The translations under genes were made by a program, and so were the position numbers. The notes beneath the pieces are model-generated. The model worked only from the letters and a program-made list of their open reading frames with translations. It was not told the origin of the DNA and ran no database searches. Below are positions 5,998 through 33,258 of a stretch of 64,000 bases of DNA, piece by piece. Every line of letters begins with the position of its first letter. Position 1 is the stretch's first letter. The DNA is from Lachnospiraceae bacterium (lineage in GTDB: Bacteria > Bacillota > Clostridia > Lachnospirales > Lachnospiraceae), in NCBI GenBank assembly GCA_024687205.1, contig JAILES010000081.1, forward strand, positions 5,657 through 69,656, read 5' to 3'.

Positions 5998-6027
5998 ATA
6001 ATACCTTATGCCAAGCTTTTCTGTCAA
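5998..6027 (-). promoter_or_regulatory. Probable SigA promoter of the suf operon
   Basis: TTGACA (6027-6022, overlapping the upstream stop codon), 18 nt, TATTAT. Confidence 0.5.
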
Positions 6028-8069
6028 GTTTTCTCCTGCCCTGTCAGATACAGTTCTTTCGCATATTTCAGCATTTCCTTATCTATCTTTCCGGCTTCTG
6101 CTTCTTCGTCCATTATCTCAAAAGCTGCCTCAACCGATTTCGGTTTTTTATAAGGACGGTCATCGGCTATCAGGGAATCGTAGATATCCATAACCGTAAG
6201 TATCCTGGTCATCACATCCAGATCTTTTTTGTCCAGCTTCTTCGGATAGCCCTTGCCGTTCAGCAGTTCGTGATGATTGGCTGCCATGGCTCGCACGTCC
6301 CTGTATTCATCGCCGAAGACCATATGGGAAAGTATCTTGTCCGTGTATACCACGTGGCTCTGCATTATCGTACGTTCTTCTTCGGAAAGGGTTCCGCGTT
6401 CGATATGAAGATCAGCTTTTTCATCTTCCGTTAGATACGGTATGCTGCTGCCGTCTTCTTCCGTATAACAGCCGTCTTCCATATCCGCGATGATCTTCCA
6501 TTCCTCGTCACTTAAAGGGCGTCCGCAGTTAAAGGCTGCGATATTATCAAGAAACTTCTTTATCTTTTCTATCTCTTTTTCTGCAGCAACTCTGTCCCTT
6601 TTATCGGACAGTATATCATTCTCAAGTTTAAGCATGATGATCTTAAGTCTGTCCTTCAGACGTTCTTCCCTGCTTCCCAGCTTCGTGGGTTTATCCATTA
6701 CTTCCAAAGGTACATCCATCTTTCCTATATCATGCAGCATCGCCGCCAGATACAGCTGTTTCCTGTCGCTCTCGCTGAAACTTAATTCCGTCTTTTTTTC
6801 CTTATGCAGTTCGTTTATATGATCCAGCATTTCCATGCAGCGTTTTGCAACATTCTTTGTATGGTTTGCGTTATAAGGCGTACGGCCTTCTATCGCTTCC
6901 GCAAAAGCCTCTGCCATTGAGAAGAGCATACGCTGTGTATCCCGCTGACGTCTCTTCAGCAGCTCCGTATACTTATATAACAGGCTTAAGATGAACAGCA
7001 GGAAGAAACCCGCCAGCACCGCGGTAAGAGGTAATTTGTATGAGAATATTCCGAACACTGCTGCCGCCGCGATCACGTATCCTGCCATGAATACAGCCAG
7101 CAGCACTGCGCTTTTTTTCACCTGACTCTTTAACAGCAGCACAGCGAAAACCACCATCAATATGCCGATAAGAGGAAAAACAAGATATGCCGGCACGGCG
7201 CTGTTGGTCTTATTATGGAGCAGCGCTTCTATATAGTTGGCCTGTATCTCCACACCGTACATCTCCCGCGAATAATCACAGGGTACTTTATAAGAGTCCA
7301 GCATGCCACCGGTATAAGCTCCCACCAGCACTATCGAGCCTGCAAAATGCGAAGCCGGCACGCTCCCGTCCAGCACCTTTGCCATTGACACGGCTTCCAC
7401 CTCGCCGGGTTTCATCGAGTATGCCAGTTCTTCTCTTGTATCATATTCCGGAAGTTCTGAAAGCCTTGAAGCTATCACATAGGCAAAGCTTTTATATGAA
7501 GGCGGTATCTGAGTATATGCCGTCCTTACGATCCCGTCGCCATCGGTGATTACATTGGTGAAACCGTATTCCGCTGCTTCCGCCAGTTCCTTAAAAGGAG
7601 TATGTTCTTTACTTATATATGTCCTCGTATAATAAATGCCGTCCCTGCTCACCAGTTCCCTGTCGGACTCCAGCGAAGATGCCAGAACTACATTGCCTGC
7701 TTTCGACACGGCTTCTGTAAGTGCCGCATCCTCCTCCGAATCATTTGTTCCCGAGAAGATCACATCTATCCCTATTACCTCAGGTCTGTTCTCTTCATCT
7801 TCATTAAGTATCTCTATCAGTTTTGCAAAGTAATTCCTGTTCCAGTATGAGTATGGCCCCAGCACGTTCAGACTCTCATCATCGATGGCGATTATCTTTA
7901 TATCTTCCGTTATACCGTCAAGCTTCCTGTACAGATAATCTTCTCCGTAATTCTCTATACGCATCGGAATCCTGAAAACGGCGCACAGTGCCACGCCTGC
8001 TGCTACAGCCACCAGGCATAACGCGATGATCACCTTCTTTAACCGCTTGTTTTCTTTCTCAAACTGCAT
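6024..8069 (-). CDS. Membrane CHASE2-domain / HD-GYP phosphodiesterase (probable c-di-GMP hydrolase)
   Basis: N-terminal TM, CHASE2-like segment (IIAIDDESL..GPY..W.R..FAKLI..IGIDVIF; GVEIQANYIEAL), three TMs, AAMLHDIGK and HHELLNGKGYP motifs. Confidence 0.85.
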   Translation of the reverse strand: MQFEKENKRLKKVIIALCLVAVAAGVALCAVFRIPMRIENYGEDYLYRKLDGITEDIKIIAIDDESLNVLGPYSYWNRNYFAKLIEILNEDEENRPEVIGIDVIFSGTNDSEEDAALTEAVSKAGNVVLASSLESDRELVSRDGIYYTRTYISKEHTPFKELAEAAEYGFTNVITDGDGIVRTAYTQIPPSYKSFAYVIASRLSELPEYDTREELAYSMKPGEVEAVSMAKVLDGSVPASHFAGSIVLVGAYTGGMLDSYKVPCDYSREMYGVEIQANYIEALLHNKTNSAVPAYLVFPLIGILMVVFAVLLLKSQVKKSAVLLAVFMAGYVIAAAAVFGIFSYKLPLTAVLAGFFLLFILSLLYKYTELLKRRQRDTQRMLFSMAEAFAEAIEGRTPYNANHTKNVAKRCMEMLDHINELHKEKKTELSFSESDRKQLYLAAMLHDIGKMDVPLEVMDKPTKLGSREERLKDRLKIIMLKLENDILSDKRDRVAAEKEIEKIKKFLDNIAAFNCGRPLSDEEWKIIADMEDGCYTEEDGSSIPYLTEDEKADLHIERGTLSEEERTIMQSHVVYTDKILSHMVFGDEYRDVRAMAANHHELLNGKGYPKKLDKKDLDVMTRILTVMDIYDSLIADDRPYKKPKSVEAAFEIMDEEAEAGKIDKEMLKYAKELYLTGQEKT

Positions 8070-29533: not shown

Positions 29534-30013
29534 TTGCAGTCCATGGACGAAATATATCAGAAGTACGCGAACACGGTATACAAATACCTGATGTCGCTGA
29601 CCCATAAGGAAGAACTGGCCGAAGAATTCACCCAAGAGACCTTTTATCAGGCTGTCCGCTCCATCGGCAGCTTTGAGGGAAAATGCAGGATCTCCACCTG
29701 GCTCTGCGCGATAGCCAAAAACCTGTATTTAAGCTATCTTCGTAAAAACCCCGAGCATGAGGATATCGATGAACAGGATATCACCGTCGCCTCCGCAGAG
29801 AACACGGCTCTGGAGTCTCTGAGCCGGGTAGAACTGCTTAAAAAGCTGCATAAGCTCCCCGAGCCTTACCGGGAAGTCACTTATCTTCGAGCCTTTGGCG
29901 GCCTGTCTTTTGCAGAGATCGGCGAGGTACTGGGTAAGACTGAGAACTGGGCCAGGGTCAGTTTTTACAGAGGAAAAGAAAAACTCAGAAAGGAAGTGGA
30001 TAAAAATGAATAA
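29534..30013 (+). CDS. ECF RNA polymerase sigma factor
   Basis: TTG start after AGGAGGTG. Region 2 (AEEFTQETF..STWLCAIAKN) and region 4 (LPEPYREV..LSFAEIGEVLG..W.RV.FYRGK). Confidence 0.92.
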   Translation: MQSMDEIYQKYANTVYKYLMSLTHKEELAEEFTQETFYQAVRSIGSFEGKCRISTWLCAIAKNLYLSYLRKNPEHEDIDEQDITVASAENTALESLSRVELLKKLHKLPEPYREVTYLRAFGGLSFAEIGEVLGKTENWARVSFYRGKEKLRKEVDKNE

Positions 30014-30983
30014 GATTCCGTGCGAAGTTATAAAAGATCTGTTCCCTTCATATATAGACGGATTAACAAGTGAAAGGACTAATCAGCTCATAGAAGAACA
30101 TATAGCAGAATGTCATGAATGTACTGAAGTGTTACGCTCCATGCGAGGTGATACTGAGGATACCATTCTTCCCGGTGAAGACGACCGTAAGGAGATAGAT
30201 TTTCTGAAAAAAACACGACTGATGCAGAAGATCGCATTTATCAGCAGTATGGCAGCTATCATCATGGCAGCGCTTTTCGTTATCATACGTGTATTTATTG
30301 TAGGCAGTTCGTATGACGGGACGATGTACATTGTAAATAATGTCAGTGTGGATGAAGGATTTCTGCGCTTAAACATAAGCACTTCAGACAGCGCAACTGT
30401 CCTTTCACGTGTTAAATGCAATGAAGAAGACAGTGTTGTGACAATAAAAGCCAATTTAGTACCTGTTTCGATATTTAAGCGTGCCAGGAGCGAATATGCT
30501 TTTAAGCTTTCAGATCCTGCTACAATAAAGCAGGTTAAGATCGGCAATCAGGTGATCTGGGATGATGGTGAGACTATCTCTCCTCTTGCTTCACTGGTAT
30601 ATGCAAGCAGACATGACTATATCGGTGATATGTCCGCAAACGGTAAAAGTGCCAATGCGATCGGTGTATACACACGTTTAGGCGAATATGAGAATCAGCT
30701 TGAGACTGCCGCTGAACCTTACGGCTGGATCATCAGACCAAAGAACGATATCCCTTCCGGAAAAGCCGTGCTTACGGAAAGCGACATGGAGTCAATGGCT
30801 TATGTTCTGATCGGAGTCATCGCTAATCTTGACCATGTTACCTACGAGTATACCGTAGACGGTGAGACCCGTTCAATGAGTTTTACAATTGATGATGCCG
30901 ATGCTTTCTTCGGCCGCAGCATCAAGGACTGCGGTAAGAGCGCCCGCGTTCTTAACGAACTGATAGAGAAAACCGGATTCTGA
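30006..30983 (+). CDS. Anti-sigma factor: zf-HC2 + TM + extracellular domain (DUF4825-like)
   Basis: Starts MNKIPCEVI, HIAECHEC zinc motif, single TM, overlaps the sigma stop codon. Confidence 0.85.
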   Translation: MNKIPCEVIKDLFPSYIDGLTSERTNQLIEEHIAECHECTEVLRSMRGDTEDTILPGEDDRKEIDFLKKTRLMQKIAFISSMAAIIMAALFVIIRVFIVGSSYDGTMYIVNNVSVDEGFLRLNISTSDSATVLSRVKCNEEDSVVTIKANLVPVSIFKRARSEYAFKLSDPATIKQVKIGNQVIWDDGETISPLASLVYASRHDYIGDMSANGKSANAIGVYTRLGEYENQLETAAEPYGWIIRPKNDIPSGKAVLTESDMESMAYVLIGVIANLDHVTYEYTVDGETRSMSFTIDDADAFFGRSIKDCGKSARVLNELIEKTGF

Positions 30984-31008
30984 AGTCACTTTACCATTCT
31001 CAGTGTCA

Positions 31009-31113
31009 ATCAGGGGGACGGTTCCGCGGTTGATTTTGGTCAAAATTTGCCCTCAGATCTGCTGAAGCCCTTGAAAATATTAGCCGATCAGAGAACCGTC
31101 CCCCCGGTTGATT
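31009..31113. repeat. Pair of inverted REP-like units (REPIN-like)
   Basis: ATCAGGGGGACGGTTCCGCGGTTGAT ... ATCAGAGAACCGTCCCCCCGGTTGAT. Confidence 0.8.
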
Positions 31114-31136
31114 ATTCATAATGAAATAAACGGGAC

Positions 31137-31165
31137 TTGCAAAGTTTAACACATCATGATAGAAT
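31137..31165 (+). promoter_or_regulatory. SigA promoter of the leader-GNAT transcript
   Basis: TTGCAA, 17 nt with TG extension, TAGAAT. Confidence 0.7.
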
Positions 31166-31191
31166 AACGCAACAACGAAAGGAAGCACACA

Positions 31192-31281
31192 ATGTTAAAT
31201 AACAAAAACCTGAAACTGTATAGCTACTATTATCTTCCCGAAAACAGGAAGCTTATTGCTGTGCAGTCTGACAGGAGATAA
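31192..31281 (+). CDS. Putative leader peptide MLNNKNLKLYSYYYLPENRKLIAVQSDRR (29 aa)
   Basis: RBS GAAAGGAAG. Lies between the promoter and a terminator, and its 3' end is complementary to the terminator 5' arm. Confidence 0.65.
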   Translation: MLNNKNLKLYSYYYLPENRKLIAVQSDRR

Positions 31282-31315
31282 TAAGAAGCAAAGAACAAAA
31301 CATGTTTCTTAAGAC

Positions 31316-31342
31316 CGTCTGCATAGCGCAGGCGTTTTTTTT
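31316..31342 (+). terminator. Intrinsic terminator (attenuator) upstream of GNAT
   Basis: CGTCTGC-ATAGC-GCAGGCG followed by T8, ~30 nt before the GNAT start. Confidence 0.8.
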
Positions 31343-31371
31343 ATACAACATTTCAAAAGGAGGAAACAAAA

Positions 31372-31839
31372 ATGATCATCAGATTTGCAAAAGAAAACGA
31401 ACTTGAACGGGTTAATGAACTGAGGAAGCAGGTAAATGATCTGCATGTTGCCGGAAAGCCCGATGTATTCAAGCCCGGTTTCGGACCGGAGCTGCGTGAT
31501 TTTATCAACGTGATCTGGAACGATCCCACCGAAAACATCGTTGTAGCCGATGATGAAGGTTTTATCTGCGGTTTTGCCGTGATCAATCACATCACTAAAC
31601 CTGAATCCCCGTTCATGAAAGAGCGCGATTTCCTGGACATCGATGAATTCTGCGTGGATGAAGAACACCGCAGGAAAGGCGTAGCCACTGCCATGATCGA
31701 ATTCATAAAGGATTTTGCAAAGGAAAACGGCTTTCGCCGGATCGAACTGAATATGTGGGAATTTAATCAGGGAGCACTGGCCTTCTACGAAGCAGCCGGC
31801 TTTGAAACCTTCCGCCGTTACATGGAAATGTTTCTCTGA
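31372..31839 (+). CDS. GNAT family N-acetyltransferase
   Basis: FCVDEEHRRKGVATAMI acetyl-CoA motif, N..ALAFYE..GF. Confidence 0.9.
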   Translation: MIIRFAKENELERVNELRKQVNDLHVAGKPDVFKPGFGPELRDFINVIWNDPTENIVVADDEGFICGFAVINHITKPESPFMKERDFLDIDEFCVDEEHRRKGVATAMIEFIKDFAKENGFRRIELNMWEFNQGALAFYEAAGFETFRRYMEMFL

Positions 31840-31847
31840 TTCTACAA

Positions 31848-31890
31848 TGGGGACGGTTCGGACAGATCACAGAACCGTCCCCACGGTTGA
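31848..31890. repeat. REP-like hairpin between convergent genes
   Basis: TGGGGACGGTTC-N12-GAACCGTCCCCA-CGGTTGA. Confidence 0.8.
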
Positions 31891-33258
31891 TCAGATTTTA
31901 TTACAATTTGTTTCGTCGTATGTCAGAGTGTTGTCATCGAATATGAAATGCGTCCATCTCATCTTCATGCTGAATCTGTCTTCACCGATGGGATAAAGTT
32001 TGGCGGTGAAGTCCCTTCCGTCCTCATCAACACCTTTGGCATAAAGATCGTCGTCTTTCATGAACACTTCATTAATGATAAGTTCGGCATCTTCGGGATG
32101 ATCATACTTTCCGCAGAAGGATCCCCACTTGGATCTGTCGGGATCTTTAAGGCTTTCATCCTCTATGGTAGTAACAGCACCCGGCTCCTTATCCATTGCG
32201 ATCGCACGCATACCGTTCCAGAGAGCTGCGTCTGCCCTTGCATCCTTCGATTCACGACATCCCATAAAGATAAGCACTCTGTCAGCATCGACATAACGTT
32301 CATACCAGGTATTGAGACCCGGCATACCGCCACCATGTTTCACGATCATTCCGAATTCAGGATCATTTTTGATCTCCCAGCCAAAACCGTAACCATCCCT
32401 GTCTTCATCGGCCCCTGATATACTTCCGTCATTAAGCTTAACCGTGCTGTACATTATTTTCTGTTCTTCCGAAGTCAGTACCTTTTCTTCTCGTAAAGCC
32501 CTGTCCCAGATGAACATATCAAAGATATCCGTATACACATAATCGTCTCCGTTAAGCCCGTCAAAAGCTATCACATCTCTGTCATTCGATTCTTCAACAG
32601 GAATATGCCTGCCGTCTTTCACAACCATATTACGGGCAGTATTATCATGAGGAATGCCTTCTGTCCAAATGTGGTGCACAGCGGTATGGTACATTCCCGC
32701 AGGTTCAAAAACATTCTTACACAAGTATTCCTCGAAAGGGATGCCCGCTGCTTTTTCTATGATCATCGCCAGCAGATTATATCCGCCGTTGGTGTATTCA
32801 AATTCTTCACCCGGCGCAAAGCACGGCTCTTCACCGTTCTCGGTAAGAAAGTGTATTACCGCATCGCTGCCCGGCACTTTCTTCTCTTCCTTCCACTTCC
32901 TGACGATCCAGTTATCTTCATCATAAGTTTCCGGAATGCCCCCGGTGTGCGTAAGAAGGTTCCTTATAGTCACTCCCGGATACGGAATCTCCGGATAATA
33001 CTTCGTAACCTCATCCTCAAGACTTAACAGTCCGTCTCTTACAAGGAGCATCACCGCTGCTGCCGTAAACTGCTTGGTTATCGACGCCAGCTCGAAAACA
33101 CTGTCTTCCCGCATCGGCAGTTTATCCGAAAAATCGCGGAATCCCTCTGCTCCCTTGCTTATGATCTTTCCTTTTTCTGCATACAGCCAGGTACCGTTGA
33201 ACGCCCCTTTTTCATATGCCTCATGTGTCAGCTTTTCAAATAAAGCTTTCTTATCCAT
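31891..33258 (-). CDS. Serine hydrolase, beta-lactamase/AmpC-like family, with a C-terminal extension
   Basis: SITK (SxxK), YTN (YxN), HGG, LLTHTGG; no signal peptide. Confidence 0.85.
   Translation of the reverse strand: MDKKALFEKLTHEAYEKGAFNGTWLYAEKGKIISKGAEGFRDFSDKLPMREDSVFELASITKQFTAAAVMLLVRDGLLSLEDEVTKYYPEIPYPGVTIRNLLTHTGGIPETYDEDNWIVRKWKEEKKVPGSDAVIHFLTENGEEPCFAPGEEFEYTNGGYNLLAMIIEKAAGIPFEEYLCKNVFEPAGMYHTAVHHIWTEGIPHDNTARNMVVKDGRHIPVEESNDRDVIAFDGLNGDDYVYTDIFDMFIWDRALREEKVLTSEEQKIMYSTVKLNDGSISGADEDRDGYGFGWEIKNDPEFGMIVKHGGGMPGLNTWYERYVDADRVLIFMGCRESKDARADAALWNGMRAIAMDKEPGAVTTIEDESLKDPDRSKWGSFCGKYDHPEDAELIINEVFMKDDDLYAKGVDEDGRDFTAKLYPIGEDRFSMKMRWTHFIFDDNTLTYDETNCNKI

Follow-up and report, generated by a model that had tools for sequence, protein, structure and literature searches.

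The window analysed here, 64,000 nucleotides of contig JAILES010000081.1 (assembly GCA_024687205.1, positions 5,657 to 69,656) from a bacterium of the family Lachnospiraceae, contains a gene for a 155-aa GNAT N-acetyltransferase, GNAT155, preceded by a compact leader that encodes a short Tyr-rich peptide and ends in an intrinsic terminator. The layout proposed in the initial annotation, namely a promoter, a ribosome-binding site (RBS), a 29-aa upstream open reading frame (uORF), a terminator with a T8 tract and the GNAT gene, was recovered with every element in its place (Table 1). The promoter is the only promoter-like site on the + strand of the intergenic region, and transcription would start at about position 31172. 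Its -35 and -10 hexamers are retained in three relatives (L058, L105, L113) and occur in a modified form in every other member of the leader family described below. The uORF peptide contains the block ...KLYSYYYL...; a run with at least four identical residues out of five appears in 1.6% of shuffles of this uORF. The terminator consists of a 7-bp stem of approximately -10 kcal/mol followed by the T-tract (31335-31342), and the 29 nt from the T-tract to the GNAT start codon (31372) accommodate the GNAT RBS. No promoter-like site was found between the terminator and the GNAT gene.

Table 1. Features of the leader and of the GNAT155 transcription unit in the window.
Feature	Position	Strand	Basis
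Sigma-70-type promoter, TTGCAA / 17-nt spacer / TG-extended TAGAAT	31137-31165	+	hexamers 31137-31142 and 31160-31165
RBS of the leader ORF, GAAAGGAAG	31177-31185	+	read from sequence
29-codon leader ORF (uORF), product MLNNKNLKLYSYYYLPENRKLIAVQSDRR, ATG at 31192, ending in a double TAA	31192-31281	+	ORF listing
Segment 1, ACUGUAUAGC, anti-antiterminator strand, overlapping codons Leu9-Tyr10-Ser11	31215-31224	+	minimum free energy (MFE) fold and RNAalifold consensus
Regulatory codon run TAT AGC TAC TAT TAT (Y-S-Y-Y-Y)	31219-31233	+	codon reading
Nested hairpin P1a (CUUCC/GGAAG) inside helix 1:2	31234-31251	+	fold
Segment 2, GCUGUGCAGUC, partner of segment 1 or segment 3	31258-31268	+	pairing, folds
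Hairpin P2, between segments 2 and 3	31282-31311	+	fold
Intrinsic terminator, segments 3 and 4 (CGUCUGC-AUAGC-GCAGGCG), then T8	31316-31342	+	stem 31316-31322/31328-31334
RBS of the GNAT gene, AAAGGAGG	31356-31363	+	read from sequence
155-aa GNAT N-acetyltransferase (GNAT155)	31372-31839	+	Pfam PF00583, E 7e-18
Inverted repeat GGGGACGGTTC...GAACCGTCCCC, end of the GNAT unit, common to the convergent serine-hydrolase gene	31849-31882	.	sequence

The leader folds better than expected by chance (z = -3.4; none of 200 shuffles folds as well). The pairing noted in the initial annotation, between 31258-31268 (GCTGTGCAGTC) and 31317-31327 (GTCTGCATAGC) at 10 of 11 positions, was confirmed, with one G-U pair and one U-U mismatch. 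The MFE fold further contains a strand that was absent from that account: segment 1 pairs with 31258-31267 (GCUGUGCAGU). Since segment 1 is near-identical to segment 3 (31317-31327), which forms the 5' arm and loop of the terminator (UCUGCAUAGC), segment 2 is able to pair with either of them. Segment 1 sits directly 5' of codons Tyr12-14, and the uORF stop codon (31279) lies 12 nt 3' of segment 2. As far as the sequence can tell, segment 1 is thus the strand that completes the four-segment 1:2 / 2:3 / 3:4 design of trp-type attenuators. The energies of the alternative states were compared as well. Helix 1:2 together with its nested hairpin amounts to -18 kcal/mol in the window (-18 to -24 kcal/mol across the leaders folded). 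When the window leader is folded from segment 2 onwards, the 2:3 antiterminator (-20.9 kcal/mol) and the terminated fold (-21.1 kcal/mol) are iso-energetic, and the former is the outright MFE structure in five of six homologues folded without segment 1 and with segment 4 included; the 2:3 antiterminator would form first during transcription. RNAalifold, applied to a MAFFT alignment, independently predicted helix 1:2, P1a, P2 and the terminator. Hence both an antiterminator that excludes the terminator and an anti-antiterminator that lies over the regulatory codons are present, as in silico predictions only.

The element is, with good probability, a ribosome-mediated transcription attenuator; the attenuation logic put forward in the initial annotation is supported by the full 1:2 / 2:3 / 3:4 design that segment 1 provides, and by the conservation of all its parts in the 14 leaders considered below. 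It is also probable that the attenuator works through the leader peptide, with the Tyr-codon run as its sensor. With no ribosome on the leader, segment 3 would pair with segment 4 and RNA polymerase would terminate at T8, before the GNAT gene. A ribosome that reaches the stop codon would cover the 3' part of segment 2, so that 3:4 again forms and transcription terminates. When charged tRNA-Tyr is scarce, the ribosome would stall at Tyr codon 10 or at codons 12-14, occupying segment 1 and leaving segment 2 free; the latter would then pair with segment 3 as soon as it is made, no terminator would form, and the GNAT gene would be transcribed. What we infer in this scheme are the actual stalling, the charging of tRNA-Tyr as the physiological signal, and the acetylation target of the GNAT.

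Fourteen distinct leaders were compared, that of the window and 13 others, all of them from the genus of the window or from rumen metagenomes, and a covariance model built from ten leaders was used to search the genus and 150 other genera. Eight leaders with a Tyr run precede GNAT155, and they do so in at least four different upstream contexts: right after the anti-sigma gene, after an extra gene of 244 aa, after a non-homologous spacer that follows the anti-sigma gene, and after unrelated divergent genes. Every contig encoding a GNAT with 92-97% identity to that of the window has the leader (L058 = L123, L105/L106/L111, L113, L107/L108/L124, and L112), with leader identity falling to about 70% in L107 and L112. 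A second lineage of the Tyr type was found by the covariance model in two congeneric species (L129/L130, the L025/L001 loci). There, the leader precedes a two-gene operon: a gene for a phosphinothricin/arsinothricin-type N-acetyltransferase of 172 aa (NF040504, 160 bits, below the cut-off of 210) comes first and is followed by the window GNAT's orthologue (83-84% identity). The peptide of these type-B leaders reads ...QQHSYYYYLH..., with YYCY in one species. The two sub-lineages can therefore be written as KLY[SR]YYYL (type A) and QQHSYY[YC]YL (type B); Y-[SR]-Y-Y-Y is invariant in six distinct type-A leaders, with synonymous TAC/TAT variation, and YY[YC]Y is found in the two type-B leaders.

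The phylogenetic range of the leader is narrow. Rumen Clostridia have many homologues of the window GNAT. In 24 homologues taken from species genomes, the 300 nt 5' of the GNAT gene contained no leader, and 24 congeneric genomes revealed no close orthologue of the GNAT. The first impression that the leader is a one-off was overturned, as at L001/L025 it sits one gene further upstream. Beyond the genus, the covariance model retrieved from the 150 other genera only generic terminators after protein genes; in 400 genera of the family, leader DNA yielded only short chance matches. Weak model matches in G440 and G441 were discarded as noise.

Within the alignment of the 14 distinct leaders (A4), the coding features of the uORF are kept throughout. 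All 14 have an AAAGGA or AGGAG RBS motif 7-12 nt 5' of the ATG, an open uORF of 29-34 codons (the other two frames contain one to four stops each), and a stop codon 12-18 nt 3' of segment 2. Insertions and deletions inside the uORF are multiples of three, and the remaining ones fall between the RBS and the ATG or in the P2 loop. The N- and C-terminal thirds of the peptide are variable, and the invariant block consists of the run and its neighbours; changes within the run are synonymous (TAC/TAT; CTT/CTC/CTG) except for one Y-to-C replacement. Conservation restricted to the run block fits an attenuator leader, whereas a functional small protein would not be expected to show it.

The structural features are equally well preserved. 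For the structure of the terminated state, the 14 leaders have 95.9% of their cells paired, six pairs have changed on both sides (a number reached by 8 of 500 shuffles), and the covariation score was not reached by any of 500 shuffles. The helix between segment 1 and 31258-31267 has 97.6% of its cells paired. P1a includes two pairs with compensatory double changes (CG/UA and UA/CG/AU), and L134 has another hairpin in its place; four of the five modelled pairs of P2 show compensatory changes. Substitutions in segment 2 are limited to A/G opposite U, which preserves both of its pairings, and the 9-bp core of helix 2:3 is kept in all 14 leaders, as are the invariant terminator stem and the invariant segment 3.

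The same module was identified in congeners in front of tRNA genes (L099, L101, L102, L103, L127, L133, and L134), by a terminator-core search of species genomes and by the covariance model within the genus. It comprises a promoter, an RBS, a uORF of 30-34 codons and a terminator whose T-tract abuts a tRNA-Leu block; the block contains tRNA-Leu genes (anticodons tag, cag, aag, caa, and taa) and tRNA-His, and belongs to arrays of 17-28 tRNA genes. At the site of the window's Tyr run these relatives have LLLLL: Leu-type leaders read ...LELHSLLLLLGN... where the window has ...LKLYSYYYLPEN..., and L134 reads ...LHTALLLHLLL.... Over 218 nt, the leader of L101 shares 75% identity with that of the window (E 2e-18), and E-values from the covariance model range from 1e-10 to 1e-42; the similarity makes it clear that the window leader is homologous to the Leu-type leaders of tRNA arrays, and their common ancestor is evident. 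Terminator-core matches in a Planctomycetota metagenome-assembled genome (L100) and in an IMG/VR contig (L104) were rejected as chance, both lying inside GC-rich coding sequence. Judged from these comparisons, the codon run tracks the cargo within one scaffold, Leu (and His) codons going with tRNA-Leu (and tRNA-His) and Tyr codons with the GNAT operon, with a single exception (L057). The 64-kb window has no tRNA genes, and its own assembly (94.7% complete) yielded a single copy of the leader and no tRNA array, a result that applies to the assembly and not necessarily to the organism.

The tRNA arrays of the congeners have peculiarities of their own. Further RBS-bearing mini-ORFs, rich in the amino acid of the next tRNA, occur in arrays of 17-28 tRNA genes at L099 (2300-5600, - strand), L101 (4200-8000, - strand), L103 (1200-6100) and L057 (1-1750). 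Mini-ORFs MKMEDYYY(Y)CL[TI]DYL and MEIYYYSLTDHI stop exactly at the 5' end of tRNA-Tyr, and MKRKQKRKYLKPK and MKRKRKLSHKT adjoin tRNA-Lys(ttt), whereas a mini-ORF of the form M..ISRSWSIWSG.., accompanied by a terminator and, upstream of the latter, a complementary strand (GATATCGTC/GACGATATC), lies before tRNA-Trp or tRNA-Arg(tct). The mechanism of the Leu leader cannot apply to mini-ORFs whose stop codon abuts the tRNA without an intervening terminator. In addition, three genes of about 120 nt in L099 (4985-5104, 4657-4777, and 3860-3979, - strand) score above the Rfam tRNA gathering threshold and were missed by ARAGORN. In their anticodon-loop or variable region they share a conserved insert of 45-50 nt, AAACCCC(C)GAAGGGG(G)TGCGATA(A)GGATTCCGAAGGAATCCCGA. 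The insert folds into two small hairpins, and its length is far below that of a group I intron. Finally, an ORF of 172 aa with no obvious family is located inside the L101 array between tRNA-Pro and tRNA-Cys (6019-6537, - strand), adjoining truncated tRNA-like fragments.

In the window, the 5' neighbour of the leader-GNAT unit is a gene for a zf-HC2/DUF4825 anti-sigma factor, itself located after a gene for an extracytoplasmic function (ECF) sigma factor, and the 3' neighbour is a convergent gene for an AmpC/AmpH-like serine hydrolase; with these flanks, the GNAT gene is monocistronic. A copy of the inverted repeat that closes the unit also occurs 3' of the GNAT gene in L057 and L058. A repetitive extragenic palindromic (REP)-like element with the same arms, GGGGACGGTTC...GAACCGTCCCC, and about 60 nt between them, separates the anti-sigma gene from the leader promoter (31007-31112). 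It is missing from the syntenic loci L058/L123, where 17 nt lead from the stop codon to the promoter region, and hence represents an insertion in the lineage of the window. In the corresponding place, L105/L106 have an ORF of 244 aa without a Pfam match (1919-2653, - strand). The GNAT gene itself may have a composite history: L027 (3004-3234) and L095 (2037-2270) match only its 3' 230 nt (window 31604-31839), with 94% and 86% DNA identity, respectively, and the two matches, from unrelated contigs, break at the same point, approximately 31604-31609. This common break suggests a recombination breakpoint or a mosaic gene.

Several observations weigh against reading the leader as a codon-specific attenuator. 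Helices 1:2, 2:3 and 3:4 vary on one side only (G-U/A-U/G-C), and all strict covariation falls in P1a and P2; one-sided variation is what a strand bound by two alternative partners should show, and it speaks for conservation and does not amount to proof. The 14 leaders come from a few clades of one genus, and thus represent few independent events, and the alignment was fitted to the model. Neither the counts of variable sites by codon position (9, 14 and 11 at positions 1, 2 and 3) nor those of synonymous and non-synonymous changes give a clear sign of purifying selection on the peptide, and the run of one type-B leader is broken (YYCY). A crude fold of the window leader constrained by a ribosome footprint at the Tyr codons pairs segment 2 with the RBS region and not with segment 3; this pairing was rejected as window-specific, being absent from the homologues. 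The association of codon run and cargo would be broken, if the contig is genuine, by L057, a single contig on which an upstream tRNA array and a Leu-run leader are followed by the GNAT gene. Its part 3' of the common terminator is 99.5% identical to L058 and its 5' part about 92% identical to L099, the switch (1900-1975) falling in the 30-nt terminator stretch common to both leader types. The L057 arrangement was seen once, and that of L058 recurs in an independent assembly; L057 may be an assembly chimera or a real recombinant through the conserved terminator. Lastly, a GNAT is no obvious answer to tyrosine shortage.

The initial annotation left two triggers open, a ribosome-targeting antibiotic or a shortage of charged tRNA-Tyr. 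On the comparative data, the leader is more likely to sense the supply of Tyr-tRNA than to recognise a drug, because nothing in the peptide other than the Tyr run is invariant and because homologous leaders with Leu (and His) runs precede tRNA-Leu (and tRNA-His) genes. It is unlikely, in comparison, that the leader ribosome is arrested by an antibiotic at a Tyr run that is merely slow or arrest-prone, and that the GNAT is an inducible drug-modifying enzyme. Such a sensor would have the same architecture as the antibiotic-responsive attenuators of Firmicutes (erm, cat, bmrCD, vmlR, tet(M)), many drug acetyltransferases are GNATs, and one contig (L057) has a Leu-run leader before the same GNAT. 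The GNAT of the window matches no known resistance family. It shows weak and partial NCBIfam similarity to AAC(3)-I, AAC(3)-XI, Sat2 and STAT, with a match to the structure of AAC(3)-XI at E 2e-5, but no NCBIfam model reaches its cut-off: AAC, Sat and STAT resistance models give 20-31 bits against cut-offs of 140-420, and ArsN1a gives 30 bits against 170. The nearest solved structures are the uncharacterised 3JVN and BH1408. Moreover, drug-dependent arrest peptides are sequence-specific, whereas the peptide here is unconserved outside the homopolymeric run, and the position of the homologous Leu/His-run scaffold before tRNA-Leu/His genes is what a codon-specific supply sensor predicts. Assignment of the GNAT to toxins of the TacT/AtaT/ItaT kind failed as well, as there is no partner ORF and the PDB matches at E <=1e-3 include neither TacT nor AtaT chains.

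The leader could, alternatively, be an evolutionary leftover: recombination would have copied it from the leader of a tRNA array, and its only remaining function would be that of a promoter with a leaky terminator, the uORF and its Tyr run having no regulatory role. The restriction of the family to one genus (it is missing from 150 genera by the model and from 400 by DNA), the lack of such a leader upstream of most GNAT155 homologues at 55-82% identity, and the mosaic breakpoints inside the leader and the GNAT gene are all compatible with this. Yet eight leaders of the Tyr type keep the Tyr run, the RBS, the frame, the stop position and all helices although identity in their flanks has fallen to about 70%. 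They occur in different genomic contexts and in two sub-lineages, and P1a and P2 have accumulated compensatory changes; we consider a relic with no regulatory role quite improbable. That the 29-aa ORF and the terminator constitute an independent small-protein or small-RNA gene, with the GNAT expressed separately, is very improbable: although the promoter-ORF-terminator unit is self-contained and stands before two unrelated kinds of cargo, the peptide is poorly conserved apart from the run, the 29 nt between the T-tract and the GNAT gene offer no promoter-like site, and the codon run co-varies with the cargo.

If Tyr-tRNA supply is indeed what is sensed, the substrate of the GNAT could, at a guess, be an amino-acid-like antimetabolite that lowers Tyr-tRNA charging. 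A tentative and rather doubtful extension of this idea is that the scaffold senses tRNA supply in a codon-specific and re-programmable way, its Tyr version providing for self-inducing detoxification of a Tyr antimetabolite or an inhibitor of tyrosyl-tRNA synthetase by the GNAT or GNATs. A Leu/His run would switch on spare tRNA-Leu/His genes, and a Tyr run one or two acetyltransferases of the amino-acid-analogue type. The compound, e.g., a Tyr analogue of plant or microbial origin present in the rumen, would induce its own removal through its effect, as tRNA-Tyr would remain uncharged and ribosomes would stall at YYY. Inhibitors of aminoacyl-tRNA synthetases that mimic aminoacyl-adenylates are detoxified by some GNATs, MccE and RimL among them. 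With this precedent, and with a partner gene in L129/L130 of a type that N-acetylates amino-acid antimetabolites, the detoxifier reading is reasonable but speculative.

Leader-peptide attenuation is textbook biology of proteobacterial amino-acid operons, and the clostridial group to which Lachnospiraceae belong usually uses T-boxes. The element described here would place the attenuation logic in uncultured rumen Clostridia, in a form that senses Tyr codons, controls an acetyltransferase, and has an ancestry in common with the leaders of tRNA-Leu arrays. A conserved RNA scaffold in which only the codon run is exchanged, together with the cargo, would amount to a naturally occurring modular sensor of charged-tRNA supply that can be re-targeted, and it would offer a concrete lead to what this otherwise anonymous GNAT acts on, as something that perturbs Tyr-tRNA. 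The Leu-type leaders would be a bacterial chromosomal case of tRNA genes controlled by codon-matched leaders, a mode of control that has apparently not been described. A full-text literature search for Tyr-codon leaders, or for leader peptides that control tRNA genes, returned no paper; PMC3082878 names a tRNA operon, but only in another context.

No Rfam family covers these leaders. A cmscan search of positions 30000-33000 at E <=10 gave only four chance-level matches (caiA, snoR124, freshwater-2, and sR1), with no leader family (Leu, His, Trp, Thr, or Phe) and no T-box among them, and no such family was matched over the Leu-type leader of L099 either. Among characterised systems, the resemblance extends in several directions. 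The short translated leader, the alternative terminator and antiterminator, and the accessory, horizontally mobile cargo are reminiscent of ermC/ermB, cat, bmrB-bmrCD, vmlR and tet(M) of Tn916; in contrast to these antibiotic-inducible leaders, the window GNAT is no recognised resistance gene and the conserved feature is a homopolymeric run, not a specific arrest peptide. PAT and ArsN1, the phosphinothricin and arsinothricin acetyltransferases, are GNATs that act on amino-acid-like antimetabolites. The window enzyme resembles these detoxifiers in being a small GNAT, and the Tyr leader of L129/L130 precedes a PAT/ArsN1-like gene together with GNAT155. With the leaders of tRNA arrays, the window leader shares homology in both sequence and structure, but its cargo is a protein gene and its run consists of Tyr and not Leu codons.

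The likeness to trpL, hisL, leuL, pheL, thrL and pheM of E. coli and Salmonella, the leaders of amino-acid operons and of pheST, lies in a mini-ORF that is close to the promoter and carries a run of codons for a single amino acid. With trpL-type attenuators, the predicted element further shares the four segments with their 1:2, 2:3 and 3:4 alternatives, a stop codon placed for masking of segment 2, and a terminator before the cargo. It differs from them in its occurrence in Clostridia (Lachnospiraceae), in the Tyr codons that it would sense, in its cargo, which is a GNAT gene and not the biosynthetic or synthetase gene of amino-acid operons, and in the change of codon specificity between Leu and Tyr within one scaffold.

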